Shown: positions 1,906-9,084 of the stretch, piece by piece | How the letters are laid out: every line of letters begins with the position of its first letter | Position numbering within the stretch: position 1 is the stretch's first letter | UHGV virus genome: UHGV-1484038 | Source of the DNA: a virus | Direction: 5' to 3' (one strand) | DNA length: 26,579 nucleotides | Notes under the pieces: generated by a model | The model's input: the letters and a program-made list of their open reading frames with translations, nothing else | What the model was told of the DNA's origin: nothing | Databases searched by the model: none | Translations under genes and position numbers: made by a program

Positions 1906-2111
1906 TCCCTAATTGTCTGTGGAATGACCAATTTAGCAATTTCCTTTGTCTGTGGAAAGCAGGGAAACCACGCGCCGGGCGTGGATAAATATCCCGGTAT
2001 TGAATCGACTGTTGGCTGCCGCTTGGCGGCCTTTTTCATTTCAGGCTCACGGGAATCATCCGCTACGTGCTTTGTTGATAAATCCAGCCCGTGAAGCCTG
2101 ACCCTTTTCAA

Positions 2112-2126
2112 ACACACACACACACA
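2112..2126. repeat. (AC)7 dinucleotide microsatellite in the holin 5' leader
   Basis: ACACACACACACACA read directly at 2112-2126, about 30 nt upstream of the holin start codon. Confidence 0.9.
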
Positions 2127-2156
2127 GCGCCATCCGAAAAATCGGAGGTGAGGCCT

Positions 2157-2480
2157 ATGAAAATGCCATACAAACAAGATTTCATCGCTGCGCTACTTGC
2201 CGCCAAGGAGCAGGGTATTGGTGCAATGCTGGCTTTTATCATGGCGTATCTGCGTGGTCGCTATAACGGCGGCGCGGTAACAAAAACGCTAATTGATGCG
2301 CTGATGTGCGCGATGATTGCCTGGTTCGTTCGTGACCTTCTGGACTTTATCGGCCTGAGCAGCAACCTCGCCTACATAGCCAGCGTCTTTATTGGATACA
2401 TCGGCACCGATTCGATCGGCAATCTTATTAAAAAACTTGCAGCAAAAAAGGCGGGAGTTGACGATGCAAACCAGTCCTGA
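2157..2480 (+). CDS. S: Holin, lambda S family (class I), with dual-start Met-Lys-Met motif
   Basis: [39 protein letters not shown]... is highly similar to lambda S as I recall it. Three hydrophobic segments. GGAGG Shine-Dalgarno at 2143-2147. The ORF-track start at 2091 (GTG) is an upstream in-frame extension that I reject. Confidence 0.9.
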
Positions 2481-2913
2481 CGGAATTGCTCTGATAAAAA
2501 AATTTGAAGGTTGTCGGCTGACTGCTTACCCCGACCCCGGAACGGGAGATGCGCCGTGGACCATCGGCTATGGCTGGACCCATCCGGTTGACGGAAAGCC
2601 AGTAAAGCGCGGTATGACTATCGACCAGCAAACCGCTGACAGGCTTCTGAAAACAGGGCTTGTTGGTTATGAGAATGACGTGCTGAAAGTTGTCAGGGTG
2701 AAGCTGACACAAGGCCAGTTCGACGCACTGGTGTCGTTCGCTTACAACGTTGGGTCGCGTGCTCTTTCCACATCTACACTGCTGAAAAAGCTGAATGCTG
2801 GCGATATAAAAGGCGCGGCAGATGAATTTCTGCGCTGGAATAAATCAGGCGGAAAGGTGATGCCGGGGCTCACGAATCGCCGCAAGGCAGAGCGAGCTCT
2901 GTTCCTGTCATGA
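2464..2913 (+). CDS. Endolysin, phage lysozyme (T4/P22 gp19-type muramidase)
   Basis: Translation from internal ATG 2464 ([24 protein letters not shown]...GYG...) with the catalytic E-x8-D/C-x5-T arrangement and C-terminal ...[11 protein letters not shown] typical of P22 gp19-like lysozymes. Overlaps the holin end in a different frame. Confidence 0.85.
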
Positions 2914-3377
2914 TTAGCGCACTGGTTAAGCGTTACTGGCTGCAGTTGCTGGTGCTGGCGTTAATCGGCGCACTGGCTTTCTTCGTGAACCACTACCGCG
3001 ACAACGCCATCACTTACAGAGACCAGCGCGATAAGGCCACTGAGAAACTCCTCCTGGCGACCGCCACCATTAAAGACATGCAGACCCGCCAGCGTGATGT
3101 CGCTGCACTGGATGCCAAATACACCGGAGAACTGGCTGATGCGAAAGAAACCATTGAGCGTCTGCATAGCGATGTCATTGCTGGCCGTAAGCGGCTGCAA
3201 GTCGCCGCCACCTGTGCAAAGTCAACGACCGGAGCCAGCAGCATGGGCGATGGAGAAAGCCCAAGACTTACAGCAGATGCTGAACTCAATTATTACCGTC
3301 TACGAAGTGGAATCGACAAGATAACCGCGCAGGTTAACTACCTGCAGGAATACATCAGGACGCAATGCCTTCGATGA
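2910..3377 (+). CDS. Rz: Spanin inner-membrane subunit Rz (i-spanin)
   Basis: N-terminal transmembrane segment then ...[18 protein letters not shown]...[23 protein letters not shown]..., close to lambda Rz. ATGA overlap with the lysozyme stop. Confidence 0.85.
3139..3324 (+). CDS. Rz1: Spanin outer-membrane lipoprotein subunit Rz1 (o-spanin), embedded in Rz in the +1 frame
   Basis: Internal Met of ORF 3094-3324 gives [20 protein letters not shown]... with lipobox LAVSG-C and a proline-rich mature part ([13 protein letters not shown]), the typical embedded Rz1 architecture. Confidence 0.75.
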
Positions 3378-3552
3378 TAGCGATAATTTTACTCATCATC
3401 CTTCACATCTGGCTCTGTAGACAGGGTGGTGATCACTTCTGGAGTAAATCCAGATTAAACATCTCATTGCTGATGCTTGATATTGAGCATCTGGCGCGCA
3501 GTAAGGGGCTGCGTTGAGATAAGAGCCAGTTCATTACAAATACCAGGATTTA

Positions 3553-3577
3553 GCCTCGCATTCGCGGGGCTTTTTAT
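3553..3577 (+). terminator. Candidate intrinsic terminator downstream of the lysis cassette
   Basis: GCCTCGC-ATTC-GCGGGGC hairpin (one G-U pair) followed by TTTTT, in the 340-bp intergenic gap after Rz. Confidence 0.45.
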
Positions 3578-3719
3578 ATCTGAATTTCACAGCGCATCTC
3601 ACGCGCATATTACCACTCAGAACCTTTCAGGATGACCCTTGAGGATACCGGCTGGCTGTCGGAGCATCTGAGGGCCGGATTTCCTGTGAGACAAGGTTCA
3701 TCACTAAAAGGTAAATCCG

Positions 3720-4271
3720 ATGAATGATATTTCTATCGAATATCTGAAAGAAGCACTGGAATACGCACCAGATACTGGTGTTATCCGTTGGAAGCAGCGA
3801 CCAAAAATTCATTTTAAGACCGAAAATTCTTGGCGGGCGACCAATGCTAATTTTGCTGGAAAAGTAGCAGGCGCACGTGATAGCGATGGATATTTGCGTA
3901 TCGGGATATGCGGCCGGTTATATAGATCTCATCGTGTAGCCTGGGCGTTACATTACGGCTACTGGCCTGATAATGAGATTGATCACATTTCAGGCGATAG
4001 GAGTGATAACCGCATAGACAACTTGCGATCAGTAACTTCGGCAGCCAATAGCAAAAATTTGCGCCTTTACTCCACAAATAAAACCGGTATCCCAGGAGTA
4101 GGTTGGTATAAAGCGCGGGGAAAGTGGAGAGCAAAGATAAACGTCTCTGGGAAGGTGAAGCATATTGGTTACTTCGATGATTTCCGTGAAGCGGTGAAAG
4201 CAAGAAAGGCTGCCGAGATGCAGTTGCAATATCACAAAAATCACGGAACCAGAGACAGGCTCACTTTCTAA
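3720..4271 (+). CDS. HNH homing endonuclease with C-terminal AP2-like DNA-binding domain
   Basis: HRVAWALHYGYWPDNEIDHISGDRSDNRIDNLRSVT (HNH_3-type motif) followed by GVGWYKARGKWRAKINVSGKVKHIGYFDDFREAVKARKAAE (AP2-like). The gene is visibly more AT-rich than its neighbours. Confidence 0.85.
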   Translation: MNDISIEYLKEALEYAPDTGVIRWKQRPKIHFKTENSWRATNANFAGKVAGARDSDGYLRIGICGRLYRSHRVAWALHYGYWPDNEIDHISGDRSDNRIDNLRSVTSAANSKNLRLYSTNKTGIPGVGWYKARGKWRAKINVSGKVKHIGYFDDFREAVKARKAAEMQLQYHKNHGTRDRLTF

Positions 4272-4285
4272 AAGGTAAAGACGCT

Positions 4286-4804
4286 ATGAATAATCCGTCA
4301 GTTATTCCGGCCTTCGACTTCCGCGAAATGGTCACGACCCTCGACAACAAGATAATCACCACATCACTCAAGGTGGCGGATTACTTTGGCAAGCGACACA
4401 AAGACGTTTTGCGTGCCATACGTAACCTGAAATGCTCCGATGACTTCACCCAGCGCAATTTTGCGCCCATTGATTTCATTGATAAAAATGGCGATGTTCA
4501 GCCTATGTATAACATCACCCGCGACGGATGCATGATGCTAGTGATGGGATTCACTGGCAAAACAGCTGCCGCAGTGAAGGAGTGTTACATCAATGCCTTC
4601 AACTGGATGGCCGAGCAGCTAAACCGGCGCATGGCGATGGGTGAAGAATTGCAGCATCGCTACGCCATCAAAGAAACGCGCTCAAAGCTGAAAGGCACGA
4701 TCGGAAGCCGTTTGATGAACGAGCGGAAGAAAGAGAAGCGCGTCCTGGAGCTCGAACATGAGCACATCATGCAGGTAACGCAGCCGGAATTACTTATTGG
4801 CTGA
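4286..4804 (+). CDS. rha: Rha family phage regulatory protein
   Basis: N-terminal ...ITTSLKVADYFGKRHKDVLRAIRNL...FTQRNF...YNITRDGCMMLVMGFTGKTAAAVKECYINAF matches the Rha (phage pRha) domain pattern. Rha genes sit between lysis and packaging genes in P22-like phages. Confidence 0.8.
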   Translation: MNNPSVIPAFDFREMVTTLDNKIITTSLKVADYFGKRHKDVLRAIRNLKCSDDFTQRNFAPIDFIDKNGDVQPMYNITRDGCMMLVMGFTGKTAAAVKECYINAFNWMAEQLNRRMAMGEELQHRYAIKETRSKLKGTIGSRLMNERKKEKRVLELEHEHIMQVTQPELLIG

Positions 4805-4828
4805 TCGCGGCATTACAGAAGCCCTTCA

Positions 4829-5485
4829 TTGAGGGGCTTCGATAATGGAGCACTGGAATTATTCATGAACAGACCACACCCACCAGCGCATTTTACGATG
4901 CCACCTGACCCGAAGCCGTACATCAGCATTATGCCCGCTAATGACGTTGGCGAGTGGCTGAATCAGCACATCCTGAGCGATGAGGGTGACCTCTACAACC
5001 ATGACCACCAGCATTTGCTTGAAGCGGATCTGTGCTTTCTCTGGGCATCGAACGCTTTCGAGAAGAAAGGGCGTTCCGTGCTGGGGCAGGCGGAAGAAGT
5101 GGCAATGCGGGCCGGAGGCTGGCAGAAAGCGCGGATGGAGCAGCAGATGTATGAATGGTTCGGCAGGGTGCCGCAGTTCATCATCACGCTGGCCGCCGAT
5201 TACTGCTCGCAATGTTCCGATCTGGAATTCTGCGCGCTGATAGAGCACGAGCTTTATCACATCTGCCAAGCGACAGATGAATTTGGTGCGCCGAAGTTCA
5301 CGCAGGAAGGGCAGCCAAAGCTGAAGCTGCGCGGCCATGACGTGGAAGAGTTTGTGGGCGTGGTTCGCCGTTACGGTGCGAGCCGGGACGTGCAGGAAAT
5401 GATTGATGCGGCGAATCAGCCAGCGGAGGTTGCTCATCTCGATATTGCCAGAGCGTGCGGGACGTGCATGCTGCGACTGGCTTAA
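4829..5485 (+). CDS. Putative zinc metallopeptidase-like protein (HExxH motif), function unknown
   Basis: 218-aa ORF with HELYH at ...ALIEHELYHICQ... and several Cys pairs (CSQCS, CGTC). Start may be the internal Met at 4865. The antisense ORF 4859-5554 is rejected as a shadow. Confidence 0.6.
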   Translation: MRGFDNGALELFMNRPHPPAHFTMPPDPKPYISIMPANDVGEWLNQHILSDEGDLYNHDHQHLLEADLCFLWASNAFEKKGRSVLGQAEEVAMRAGGWQKARMEQQMYEWFGRVPQFIITLAADYCSQCSDLEFCALIEHELYHICQATDEFGAPKFTQEGQPKLKLRGHDVEEFVGVVRRYGASRDVQEMIDAANQPAEVAHLDIARACGTCMLRLA

Positions 5486-5516
5486 ATACTGGACTGTATA
5501 AGACGAATGGTGATTT

Positions 5517-5990
5517 ATGGCTGCATTAAAACCTGATGTGAAAGCCTTCATCATTCAGTCGCTTGCGTGCTATGACACGCCATCGCAGGTGGTCGAGGCT
5601 GTCCAAAAAGAATTCGGGATCAGGATCACCCGCCAGCAGGCTGAATCTCACGACCCCACGAAGGCCAGCGGTAAGACGCTCGCCAAAAAGTGGATCGAGA
5701 TGTTCCACGCGACGCGCGAACGGTTCCTGACCGAAACCAGCGACATTCCGATAGCGAACAAATCCTATCGCCTCCGCGTGCTTGACCGCATGGCAACCAA
5801 AACCGAGGGGATGAAAAACTTCTCCCTGACGGCGCAGCTTATCGAACAGGCCGCGAAAGAGGTTGGCGACGCTTACACCAATAAGCTGAAGGTTGAGAGC
5901 ACTGGCAAGGATGGCGGCCCGATCAAGACCGAGACGACCAACCTCACCGCAGATCAGGCCGCAGAGATTTACCGCAAGATGATGGGGTGA
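5517..5990 (+). CDS. Putative terminase small subunit
   Basis: 157-aa protein directly upstream of, and ATGA-overlapping, the terminase large subunit. Assignment rests on position and size; the family is not securely recognised. Confidence 0.55.
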
Positions 5991-7615
5991 TCATGCCTCT
6001 CCCGTTTGAATTCGATTTCAGAAACCCTGATTACCAGATGGTTTTTGAATGGCGGATGGAGCGCTTACAGCGCATTCGCCAGAACCCTGAAATGCTGCCA
6101 GCGCTAAAGCAGTTTTATCGCACCAACCCGGCACAGTTCATCATCGACTGGGGTATGACTACTGACCCGCGTAACATCGATTATGGCCTGCCGGTCACCA
6201 TCCCTTTTCTGCTGTTCCCGAAACAGGAAGAGTGGATTCACTGGATCATGGAGCGGCGCGAACGACTGGAGAACGGCATCACCGAAAAGAGCCGCGAAAT
6301 GGGGCTCAGTTGGACCGCGATCGGGCTGGCCTGCTCGCTTTGTCTCTTCAACAAAGAAATGGTTATCGGTTTCGGCTCCCGTAAAGAGGAATACGTCGAC
6401 AGCACCGGTGACCCGAAGGCGCTGTTCTGGAAGGCGCGAAAGTTCGTGGAAACACTGCCCATCGAGTTTCGTGGTTCGTGGGACGAGAAGAAGCATGCGC
6501 CGTATATGCGCGTTGAGTTTCCCGATACTGGCGCGGTCATCAAAGGCGAGGCTGGCGACAATATCGGTCGTGGTGACCGTACCACGCTCTACCTGGTGGA
6601 TGAAGCTGCATTCCTCCAGCGTCCTCTGTTGATTGATGCGGCGCTGTCGCAAACCACCCGTTGCCGTATTGACCTGAGCTCGGTTAATGGCATGGCGAAC
6701 CCGTTCGCGCAGAAGCGCCACGGCGGAAAAATACCAGTATTCACGTTCCACTGGCGAGATGACCCGCGCAAGGATGAAGAGTGGTATCGCAGGGAGTGCG
6801 AGAAAATCGACAATCCGGTGGTGGTGGCGCAGGAACTTGACCTGAACTACAGCGCATCTGCGGAAGGCGTCCTGATCCCGTCCGACTGGGTACAGGCTGC
6901 CGTCGACGCGCATATCAAACTTGGTATTCAGCCAACGGGCAAGCGACTGGGCGCGATGGACGTCGCCGACGAAGGCCGGGACAAAAATGCCTTTTCGACC
7001 CGTCACGGCTTCCTTCTGGAGAACGTGCGTGAATGGTCCGGCGTGGGCAGCGACATTTACCAGTCCGTTGAGAAGGTCTTCGGCTTTTGCGAACAGGACA
7101 ACCTCGAAGAATTTCGCTTCGACGAGGACGGCCTGGGCGCTGGCGTTCGCGGCGATGCACGCGCCATCAACGAACTGCGTAACGCTGCGCGCCGACCGTC
7201 AATACTCGCCACACCGTTTCGCGGTAGCGGCGCGGTGTTTGATCCGGACGACGAAGCGGTGCGCGGCGACAACGGACAGGCCGCCCGCCTGAATAAGGAC
7301 TTCTTCGCTAACGCCAAGGCCCAGAGCTGGTGGCATTTACGCAAGCTTTTCCAGAACACCTACCGCGCCGTGGTTGAGGGCATGGCCTACAACCCGGACG
7401 AAATCATCTCAATCAGCAGCGCCATGGCGAGCAAAGACAAACTCATCATTGAGCTGTCGCAGCCGACCTACTCCATTAATGGCGTGGGGAAAATCGTTGT
7501 TGATAAACAGCCTGATGGCACCAAGTCGCCGAACCTCGCCGACTCGGTGATGATCAGCTACGCGCCAATGAATTCAGCCCTGAACATCTGGGAGCTGCTA
7601 GGGAGACAGGCCTGA
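5987..7615 (+). CDS. Terminase large subunit
   Basis: 542-aa protein with an ATPase Walker B-like YLVDEAAF segment and a C-terminal nuclease-like region, located between the candidate small terminase and the portal. Confidence 0.85.
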
Positions 7616-9084
7616 TGGCACGAAACAAGCAATCCTCTCAGCGAACGGCACAGGCCACCGCTGACGGCTACGAGAACTTCGTCGCCCGCGTTGGGATGCA
7701 GACGCCTAACCAGCATTCAGCATCGACCTACCGGGCGAACTTCACCAGCCGCAACCGCATGCTGGTGGAATGGTCATATCGCGGTTCGTGGGTTATCGGT
7801 GAAGCGGTCGACGCTATCCCGGACGATATGACCCGAAAGGGCATTCGCATCACTTCGGAGATTGACGCCAAAGACCGTGGCACCCTCGAAGCGCAACTGG
7901 ATGAGTTGCAGATCTGGGATGCGCTGAACGACGTGCTGAAATGGTCGCGCCTCTACGGCGGCGCGGTGGGCTTCATCATGATCGAGGGGCAAGCACCAAT
8001 GACCCCGCTGCGACTCGAAACCATTGGCGAGGGCAAGTTTAAGGGCATTCTCCCGCTCGACCGCTGGATGATTAACCCGGTGCTGACACGCCGCATTAAA
8101 GAGATGGGGCCGGACCTCGGCAAGCCTGAGTTTTACGACGTGGTGACCACCGCAACGGGCATTCCGGCCTGGCGCATCCATCACAGCCGCCTGATCCGCT
8201 TTGATGGCGTCACGCTGCCATTCCAGCAGAAGATGACCGAAAACGAATGGGGAATGTCGGTTGTAGAGCGTATCTGGGATCGGCTTACTGCGTTCGATAG
8301 CGCCACTGTCGGCGCGGCGCAGCTGGTCTATAAAGCGCATCTGCGTACCTATAGCGTGGAGAAGTTGCGCGAGCTTATCGCGCTTGGAGGCCCGGCGTTC
8401 GAAGCGTTGCTGAAGAACATCGACCTGATCCGCAAGTTCCAGAGCAATGAAGGTATGACGCTCATGGACTCGCGGGATAAGTTCGAAACCCACCAGTACA
8501 GCTTTAGTGGTCTGGATGACATTCTTTCGCAGTTTGCTGAGCAGATCAGCGGTGCCGTTGGTATCCCGCTGGTACGCCTGTTCGGTCAATCCCCGAAAGG
8601 CTTCTCTACTGGTGATGCAGACCTCGCCAACTATTACGACCGGGTGAGCTCATTGCAGGAGCGCCGCTTACGGCTGCCGATGCGCCGGATACTGGACATT
8701 ATGCACCGCTCGGAACTCGGAAAGCCGCTGCCGGACGATTTCACGTTTGAGTTTAACCCGCTATGGCAAATGTCAGACGTTGACCGATCAACGGTGGCCG
8801 TAAACACCACCAACGCGATCAGTACCGCGCTGGGCGACGGATTGATGACGCGTAAGGCGGCGATGACCGACCTGCGCGAAAACTCTGACGTCACCGGCAT
8901 CGGGGCATCCATTACCGACGAGGATATCGAGAATGCCGAAGACGAAGCGCCGCCAGGCATCGGCGAACTTGGCGACAAACCGCCAGAGCCGCCAGGCGGA
9001 GATCCGATATCGAACGAGCCTACGGCAGATAGCGCGGGCGGTCGGGGATATCGTAAATGGTCGCTACGATGGTTCAAACGATAG
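7615..9084 (+). CDS. Portal protein
   Basis: 489-aa protein immediately after the large terminase, with an acidic/proline-rich C-terminal tail typical of portals. Confidence 0.8.
   Translation: MARNKQSSQRTAQATADGYENFVARVGMQTPNQHSASTYRANFTSRNRMLVEWSYRGSWVIGEAVDAIPDDMTRKGIRITSEIDAKDRGTLEAQLDELQIWDALNDVLKWSRLYGGAVGFIMIEGQAPMTPLRLETIGEGKFKGILPLDRWMINPVLTRRIKEMGPDLGKPEFYDVVTTATGIPAWRIHHSRLIRFDGVTLPFQQKMTENEWGMSVVERIWDRLTAFDSATVGAAQLVYKAHLRTYSVEKLRELIALGGPAFEALLKNIDLIRKFQSNEGMTLMDSRDKFETHQYSFSGLDDILSQFAEQISGAVGIPLVRLFGQSPKGFSTGDADLANYYDRVSSLQERRLRLPMRRILDIMHRSELGKPLPDDFTFEFNPLWQMSDVDRSTVAVNTTNAISTALGDGLMTRKAAMTDLRENSDVTGIGASITDEDIENAEDEAPPGIGELGDKPPEPPGGDPISNEPTADSAGGRGYRKWSLRWFKR

Follow-up and report, generated by a model that had tools for sequence, protein, structure and literature searches.

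The DNA analysed in this study is a stretch of 26,579 nucleotides from the virus genome UHGV-1484038 (the window), which is the late region of a lambdoid temperate phage. The interval of interest, positions 3720–5485, contains three plus-strand genes between the lysis genes Rz/Rz1 and the genes for DNA packaging: a free-standing, putative homing-endonuclease gene of the HNH_3 type with a weak AP2 match (3720–4271; 183 residues, isoelectric point (pI) 10), a Rha gene (4286–4804; 172 residues) and a gene for a zincin-like putative phage metallopeptidase of family PF18894 (4865–5485; 206 residues, pI 5.2). The HNH gene lies within a cassette of 713 bp (3578–4290, plus strand), delimited by extension of exact matches. 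It is preceded by a structured leader RNA of ~130 nucleotides (3592–3722, plus strand) and followed by a truncated second copy of the 3' segment of that leader, GAGACAGGCUCACUUUCUAAAAGGUAAAGACGCUAUG (4252–4288, plus strand), recognized in alignments. The metallopeptidase gene is followed by a DUF2280 gene (PF10045; 5517–5990, plus strand), which encodes the presumed small terminase subunit. The HNH protein, Rha and the metallopeptidase each belong to a known family, and public genomes already contain annotated copies that are identical. The original prediction, which described the interval as a cargo block, placed the three genes and their flanks correctly, although it did not list a 50-residue open reading frame (ORF), the terminator or the structured leader. 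We assign a probability of roughly 70% to the reading that three independent units meet here within the late operon of the phage, namely an inserted HNH cassette, an exchangeable slot gene and a packaging-linked zincin. Among the links of the three genes, only the pairing of the metallopeptidase with DUF2280 is unexpected.

The three units are independent of one another. Among 5426 complete Escherichia coli genomes, to which all counts for this species refer, the HNH gene is present in 2, the Rha allele in 108 and the metallopeptidase in 28, and neither of the HNH-carrying genomes is among the 28. In E. coli EH09-18-41, Rz is directly followed by the metallopeptidase gene, with neither HNH nor Rha, and in phage phi80, Rha follows Rz without the metallopeptidase. 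The two E. coli genomes that carry the exact HNH gene have different contexts. In ET650, it lies between another Rz and a KilA-N gene, with a different small terminase and without Rha or the metallopeptidase; in ES3, the order is DUF2570/LysC, HNH, Rha and a PBSX-type TerL, again without the metallopeptidase. Rha is upstream of the metallopeptidase in 16 of 80 IMG/VR loci (viral-locus counts for the metallopeptidase and DUF2280 queries refer to the matches listed, 80 loci each) and adjoins it in at least 4 of the 28 E. coli genomes among the matches listed. A mosaic breakpoint at ~4811, right after the Rha stop codon, separates the two genes, and many E. coli prophages share only the part of the window from 4811 to 8000. 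Because the three genes assort independently, the description as a cargo block was only partly right: the HNH gene is an insertion and Rha is exchangeable, but the metallopeptidase is a fixed partner of DUF2280 and not cargo. Nor are all three genes universally conserved with packaging roles, a pattern that the original prediction had set against itself. An inverted repeat, GAAGCCC-N9-GGGCTTC (4818–4840), sits just past the Rha stop codon at the breakpoint between the Rha slot and the metallopeptidase–DUF2280 module; no T run follows it.

The metallopeptidase had been described as a 218-residue HExxH protein of no nameable family. It matches PF18894 (PhageMetallopep) over its full length with an E value of 4.3e-43 (147.1 bits against a cutoff of 23.7). 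The longer form, from the ORF list (4829–5485), starts at TTG 4829, a codon in the loop of the inverted repeat; the start is most likely ATG 4865, which gives 206 residues, because RefSeq homologues begin there and Met1 is shared by nearly all sequences in the alignment of the family. The HELYH motif is real and invariant across the family, with His128, Glu129 and His132 present in 84 of 84 aligned sequences. The cysteine clusters to which attention had been drawn fared unequally, in that Cys198 (84/84) and Cys201 (75/84) are conserved but the CSQC sequence (residues 114–117) is not. A conserved zinc ribbon built from the CSQC cluster was therefore rejected. All residues that are invariant in the family are present in the window protein, and nothing in it differs from the family. 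A predicted model with a predicted local distance difference test score (pLDDT) of 94 has a zincin core with the invariant HExxH...H arrangement, and the protein is a PF18894 zincin-like protein and a putative peptidase. Matches of this model in BFVD were restricted to family members and weak SprT-like structures, and a sequence search of the PDB gave nothing useful. No sequence-level relation was found to the minimal zincins and SprT/Wss1 proteins (projannalysin, 4jix; selecase, 4qhf; Spartan, 6mdx; Wss1, 5xbn), in which the additional N- and C-terminal elements of the metallopeptidase, with their conserved HxH and CxxC, have no counterpart. The lack of a sequence relation and the acidic character of the protein place it outside the SprT/Spartan DNA-dependent proteases.

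PF18894 has no characterized member, so that the protein does not align with a characterized non-enzymatic family, the outcome that the original prediction had named as contrary to its proposal. Literature searches on PF18894, on DUF2280 and on a metallopeptidase together with the terminase small subunit returned passing mentions or nothing, and none of the NCBIfam models covers the metallopeptidase, DUF2280 or TerL. The PHROG family that contains the metallopeptidase, phrog_513, is labelled 'transposase (integration and excision)', and the label is repeated in several GenBank phage records; it has no support in sequence, fold or context. A role as prohead protease was also rejected, since the metallopeptidase gene is ahead of the terminase genes and the head module already has a DUF2213 gene. 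The DUF2213 protein, which we take to be a head protease or scaffold, is encoded after the portal and Mu F-like genes, and the zincin therefore need not be the prohead protease. Some PF18894 members are longer, at 260–327 residues (for example, P0130 with 260 and P0176 with 327), owing to N-terminal extensions of 55–120 residues that have no match in Pfam. The extension of P0130 looks helix-turn-helix-like by eye, and related viral loci match the metallopeptidase part only.

The metallopeptidase and DUF2280 are co-inherited as a fixed pair that is part of the packaging module. In all 80 IMG/VR loci with a close metallopeptidase, DUF2280 is ~35 bp downstream, even where TerL is unrelated. Of 14 loci with distant metallopeptidases (35–56% identity), 12 have DUF2280 as the first or second ORF behind the metallopeptidase; a search with one distant member returned no viral loci. 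A reverse test was made by scanning with the DUF2280 alignment, with one genome per species and 80 loci in Enterobacterales, Pseudomonas, Acidovorax and Comamonadaceae. The metallopeptidase is directly upstream of DUF2280 in 78 of these and thus in 78 of the 78 that are informative, because the remaining two contigs do not extend far enough on the upstream side of DUF2280; in none of the 80 loci is the metallopeptidase replaced by another gene. The ORF behind the pair has at least eight unrelated N-terminal sequences, indicating that the pair is combined with different large terminases. In ET650, the 5' region of the TerL gene is 85% identical to that of the window, yet the small terminase is different and the metallopeptidase is missing. 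The two families are also similar in size, with 3468 (PF18894) and 3564 (DUF2280) clusters at 90% identity. The pairing appears to be undescribed in the literature searched.

Two Pseudomonas DUF2280 loci, L156 (3811–3957) and L168 (3610–3957), have only a partial metallopeptidase match upstream, which could represent decayed copies or assembly frameshifts. Extra DNA is present between DUF2280 and TerL in several IMG/VR relatives, ~300 bp in L016, L051, L057, L061, L062 and L065 and ~435 bp in L071, L073 and L074, and this gap may be another small insertion site.

The DUF2280 protein (E = 8.7e-50 with PF10045) is presumed to be the small terminase subunit from the position of its gene, the overlap of its stop codon with the TerL start at 5987 and GenBank annotation; in the record of SEN34, a feature named 'terminase small subunit' lies at the margin of the stretch that matches the TerL region. 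It is a basic protein (pI 9.1). Its alignment shows conservation over the N-terminal ~125 residues and a variable C-terminal tail, which fits the expectation for a small terminase docking on different large subunits.

A direct action of the metallopeptidase in packaging, together with the DUF2280 protein, is a tentative proposal to which we give somewhat less than an even chance. In what we see as its most likely role, the metallopeptidase would be a late-expressed zinc hydrolase that works with the DUF2280 protein at the initiation of packaging, for example by processing that protein or something bound to it. Several observations count against the proposal. A Foldseek comparison of the metallopeptidase model with the PDB gave no significant match, and the protein is acidic (pI 5.2), unlike the DNA-binding SprT proteases. 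The AlphaFold2 (AF2) model of DUF2280 is all-helical and of low confidence (pLDDT 61.6), and the DUF2280 profile has no match to solved terminases in the PDB. In addition, the strict linkage need not mean that the two proteins are partners and may be due to a packaging site that acts in cis. Several headful phages have their pac site within or next to the small-terminase gene, and if one were in or beside the metallopeptidase gene, the linkage would follow from it and the protein itself could be unrelated to packaging, with a role of its own in host takeover or anti-defence. The linkage is indeed positional, with a constant spacing of ~35–45 bp, and the metallopeptidase is acidic and has no DNA-binding features. 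However, a cis-acting site would conserve DNA and not an invariant HExxH...H together with a CxxC. These residues hold across 35–50% protein identity in Enterobacterales, Pseudomonas, Acinetobacter, Vibrio and Burkholderia, where the nucleotide sequence is not conserved, and the place of the metallopeptidase upstream of DUF2280 was never seen to be taken by another gene. A pac site leaves the invariant catalytic residues unexplained, and the metallopeptidase must therefore have a selected function as well; we regard this explanation, the chief alternative for the linkage, as unlikely.

The leader RNA that precedes the HNH gene (3592–3722) was folded de novo with RNAalifold from 10 variants. 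In the consensus, an anti-Shine-Dalgarno segment, CCUUUCAG, pairs with the Shine-Dalgarno region of the HNH gene, CUAAAAGG; further elements of the fold are an inner helix and an apical hairpin, with a U-rich run behind the hairpin. The inner helix alternates between GAGCCUG/CAGGCUC and ACCCUUG/CAAGGUU across the variants. A covariance model (R1) scores 114 bits on the leader of the window and has 50 full-length plus-strand matches among the loci examined, each of which ends at a start codon. Covariation statistics were computed on the alignment fitted to this model: among 19 distinct sequences, 96% of cells are paired, 17 of 25 pairs have two-sided changes, none of 500 shuffles reaches the observed score and slid controls have a maximum of 0.134, as compared with the observed 0.444. 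The minimum free energy of the leader in the window is −46.5 kcal/mol (z = −3.2). Copies of the leader precede accessory genes of lambdoid phages that lie after the lysis genes and, in some cases, after Q. The genes behind them include Rha, several KilA-N types, an antirepressor, an N15 gp59-like protein and three separate HNH lineages; phi80 carries two copies (2261–2389 and 3855–3967), and 46 further matches were recorded in the loci examined. Judged from covariation in the aligned sequences, the leader is a candidate for a new family of cis-regulatory RNAs that would hide the ribosome-binding site of the gene downstream. Rfam 15 contained no match at the gathering thresholds for the whole window or at E ≤ 1 for positions 3300–5600, and the leader appears to be undescribed in the literature and Rfam copies searched.

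The HNH protein matches HNH_3 (PF13392) well above threshold (E = 7.9e-19; 67.5 bits against a cutoff of 24.8), and phrog_99 (HNH) covers residues 1–179 with an E value of 1.7e-67. The AP2 domain in the proposed HNH-AP2 architecture was seen only below the cutoff, as a weak C-terminal match to PF00847 (E = 0.0019; 18.9 bits, under the cutoff of 33.3). The 'HEase' models of PADLOC match weakly, and NCBIfam has no model for the protein. The homing nickase I-HmuI (1u3e) is the only solved relative by sequence. Its alignment with the window protein is marginal, with an E value of 0.0014 and confined to the HNH region, but spans the DH...N...NLR motif; the segment IDHISGDRSDNRIDNLR aligns with this motif, and the catalytic His and Asn are in place. 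The gene was proposed to be compositionally distinct, and the measurements bear this out: its GC content is 44.7% and that at third codon positions (GC3) is 42.4%, as compared with GC3 values of 64.7% for Rha, 67.1% for the metallopeptidase, 70.2% for TerL and 50–60% for the lysis genes. Relatives of the family occur in 3532 phage records, with up to eight copies per genome among the records listed. The single close copy (93% amino acid identity) is in phage Dewey, where it occupies the same slot after Rz and precedes a KilA-N-like gene. The gene thus resembles I-HmuI and the free-standing HNH_3 and HNH-AP2 endonucleases of PHROG 99 in its HNH_3 motif, in encoding a small basic protein, in its low GC3, in belonging to a multi-copy family found in many phages and in its presence/absence polymorphism between near-identical phages; the AP2-like C-terminal segment would be a further likeness, although its match is below the Pfam cutoff. 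It differs from I-HmuI, which is intron-encoded, in being free-standing in an intergenic leader.

The HNH gene is an inserted cassette. The closest relative of the window, the E. coli prophage ECONIH5, is 100.000% identical over 4252–6500 (2249 bp with no mismatches) and 99.6% identical over 2038–3370, and has 178 bp in place of the 881 bp of the window at 3371–4251; it keeps Rha and the metallopeptidase and lacks HNH. Citrobacter phage Omnitron, deposited as a complete circular phage record of 41.9 kb, has the same arrangement without HNH. The comparison with related phages that had been suggested therefore yielded two relatives that lack HNH between flanks of 99–100% identity, as envisaged for a selfish insertion with intact flanks. 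The 713-bp block at 3578–4290 is exactly identical in ET650, and the identical stretch is 3578–4295 in the IMG/VR locus L013 and 3571–4822 in ES3. In L013, the cassette is before a Rha allele that is only 76% identical. In four contexts the HNH ORF has stayed intact, with 100% identity among them, and the leader variant at 100% identity is confined to loci with HNH. Both E. coli isolates with the exact HNH gene originate from frog farming in Chenghai (Shantou, China), where one was obtained from the faeces of frogs and the other from sediment of a farm, a shared origin that suggests a recent local spread of the cassette.

The cassette consists of the full leader variant and the HNH ORF, after which the last ~40 nucleotides of the leader recur as a second copy. 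The second copy (4252–4288) and the first (3688–3725) are identical in 29 of 40 columns, and in the second copy CUAAAAGG is the Shine-Dalgarno sequence of Rha. The HNH reading frame enters the second copy and stops at TAA 4269–4271 within CUAAAAGG, 14 nucleotides before the Rha ATG. The presence of a second ribosome-binding segment behind HNH thus places the HNH stop codon inside the Shine-Dalgarno sequence of Rha, and the leader together with its second copy explains the architecture of the cassette. In the truncated copy, the Rha Shine-Dalgarno sequence is not sequestered in the local fold. The second copy would keep Rha translatable, probably through translational coupling. This geometry is not shared by other HNH lineages behind the same leader (L056 and L106) and was therefore rejected as a general design of HNH genes in this position.

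Very probably, to judge from the sequence comparisons, the HNH protein is an active homing endonuclease aimed at alleles of the leader region that lack HNH. The narrow, recent and repeated pattern, the intact ORF, the foreign composition and the insertion at a single kind of site are the result to be expected of homing. The nuclease would cut leader alleles without HNH in co-infecting or resident lambdoid phages, and repair from the copy with HNH would spread the cassette and drag flanking sequence along. The free-standing homing endonucleases of phage T4 (Seg and Mob) undergo 'intronless homing' with co-conversion of flanks, the Seg enzymes being of the GIY-YIG type. The window gene resembles them in being inserted between genes with its own expression signals and in having flanks that are apparently co-inherited (the HNH-linked leader variant and the 881-bp block replaced in comparison with ECONIH5). 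It is unlike them in belonging to a different nuclease family and in having a temperate lambdoid phage as its host.

Two features of the locus speak against homing. The difference from ECONIH5 is a replaced block (3371–4251) that also takes in the common 50-residue ORF, so that ordinary homologous recombination could give the arrangement without a nuclease, and a leader variant of 91% identity precedes a different gene in a Yersinia locus and is therefore not specific to HNH. On this alternative, mosaic lambdoid phages would have recombined at shared leader and Rz sequences, with the endonuclease inactive or irrelevant. The replaced block is bounded by shared sequence, the 3' end of Rz and the 3' segment of the leader, and lambdoid mosaicism is pervasive in the data set. 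Recombination alone does not, however, account for an ORF that is intact, with its catalytic motif preserved, and 100% identical in four contexts, for the narrowness of the identical block, whose end coincides exactly with the start codon downstream in two cases, or for the 93%-identical copy in the same slot of phage Dewey. We consider it quite improbable; the pattern suggests active, repeated spread of the HNH gene.

Rha was identified by matches above the curated thresholds to Phage_pRha (PF09669; E = 6.4e-31, 107.2 bits against a cutoff of 29.9) and TIGR02681 (103.3 bits against 45.95), in agreement with phrog_518; a sequence search of the PDB gave nothing useful. It is the phi80 rha allele in an exchangeable post-lysis slot, behind a common leader, that can be filled by Rha, KilA-N, antirepressor-like or other genes; in other phages, KilA-N, antirepressor or other genes are found there instead of Rha, in keeping with its proposed status as cargo. 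The phi80 record matches the Rha region at 97.0%, names the gene rha and gives the order Rz, terminator, rha. The likeness extends to the allele, the place after Rz and a terminator and the leader, and there is no difference of substance. The phi80 record puts the Rha start codon 36 nucleotides further upstream, and in the window the Rha leader has lost its 5' part, present in phi80, to the HNH cassette. Among the 108 E. coli genomes with the allele, 21 K-12-derived laboratory strains carry it at 99.2% nucleotide identity. A note in the phi80 record on rha reads 'DNA synthesis inhibition in IHF- hosts', and a published summary of the original work describes rha of phi80 and P22 as a late-operon gene that is detrimental in the absence of integration host factor (IHF) (PMC4936722).

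The original prediction raised the possibility that Rha and the metallopeptidase form a regulatory or anti-defence module. In its fullest form, all three genes would be one cargo module in which Rha and the metallopeptidase cooperate, for example with Rha as a regulator that the metallopeptidase cleaves. The genes are adjacent and co-oriented between two core modules, the same trio is present in one IMG/VR locus (L013, with its divergent Rha allele), and HExxH proteases paired with DNA-binding regulators exist, as in ImmA/ImmR. The metallopeptidase, however, has no match to Peptidase_M78 even at E ≤ 10, and its Rha neighbour is not conserved, both of which distinguish it from the ImmA/IrrE (M78) protease-regulator pairs. 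PADLOC gives no match for Rha or the metallopeptidase. Moreover, each of the three genes is found without the others (EH09-18-41, ET650, ES3 and phi80), the breakpoint at ~4811 falls between Rha and the metallopeptidase, and the low counts of adjacency given above do not fit a functional pair. A single module is thus very improbable, and the proposed pairing of Rha with the metallopeptidase does not stand. Least probable of all is that the HNH protein, whose gene precedes those of the terminase in the late operon, is a packaging accessory that stimulates terminase cutting as does HK97 gp74 (HNH-terminase partnerships being known in HK97-like cos phages), because phages with DUF2280, TerL and portal genes of 99–100% identity, including Omnitron, lack HNH and the same HNH gene precedes three different terminase sets, which for practical purposes excludes this second role suggested for it; HNH is, in addition, missing from 79 of 80 viral loci with this metallopeptidase and present in only 2 of the E. 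coli genomes, is separated from DUF2280 by 1.2 kb (Rha and the metallopeptidase) rather than adjacent to it, and has an I-HmuI-related architecture of HNH_3 plus an AP2-like segment in 183 residues, not that of the short gp74-type HNH proteins, which it resembles as an HNH-superfamily protein encoded upstream of terminase genes and from which it differs in subfamily, in architecture and in adjacency to and conservation with the terminase.

The remainder of the late region has the following order. RusA is the first gene described and precedes the Q antiterminator (690–1313), lysozyme (2392–2913) and Rz with the embedded Rz1 (2910–3377). A hydrophobic ORF of 50 residues (3365–3517) overlaps the Rz stop codon; the block that contains it (3371–3551) has no counterpart in ECONIH5 and Omnitron. 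This block was considered as something unusual and rejected as such, since it is found in 1950 of the 5426 E. coli genomes, where it is annotated as a 'hypothetical protein' after the lysis protein. The lysis cassette is closed by an intrinsic terminator located in a terminator scan (3552–3580, plus strand), with a stem-loop at 3552–3571 followed by a T run. The hairpin is also conserved in ECONIH5, Omnitron, ET650 and ES3, and the phi80 record has a 'putative rightward transcription terminator' at the equivalent place, between Rz and rha. Downstream of DUF2280 is TerL (5987–7615), followed in order by a Phage_portal_3 portal, a Mu F-like protein, DUF2213, a cement protein and the major capsid protein.

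For annotation, these results mean that the cargo block is better treated as three separate units and that the PF18894 gene belongs with the packaging module. The HNH gene is a recent, very probably selfish insertion without bearing on packaging, and Rha is an ordinary slot gene. The cassette and its leader copy would illustrate how a homing endonuclease can insert without breaking the expression of the gene downstream, and the leader RNA could explain the silencing of potentially toxic late accessory genes such as Rha, KilA-N and nucleases. The pairing with DUF2280 across at least eight types of large terminase gives PF18894, an uncharacterized family of a few thousand clusters at 90% identity, a testable context, and tractable phages such as Pseudomonas JBD44 carry the pair. 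A more far-reaching proposal, which we consider doubtful, is that PF18894 zincins are obligatory partners of DUF2280-type small terminases and a third component of packaging initiation, with the slot genes, HNH among them, under a new leader RNA that hides their ribosome-binding sites. The zincin might, for example, act on the small terminase by activating or processing it, or clear the pac region of a protein. If this were true, it would be an unrecognized packaging component in a widespread group of temperate phages of Enterobacterales, Pseudomonas, Acinetobacter, Vibrio and Burkholderia.

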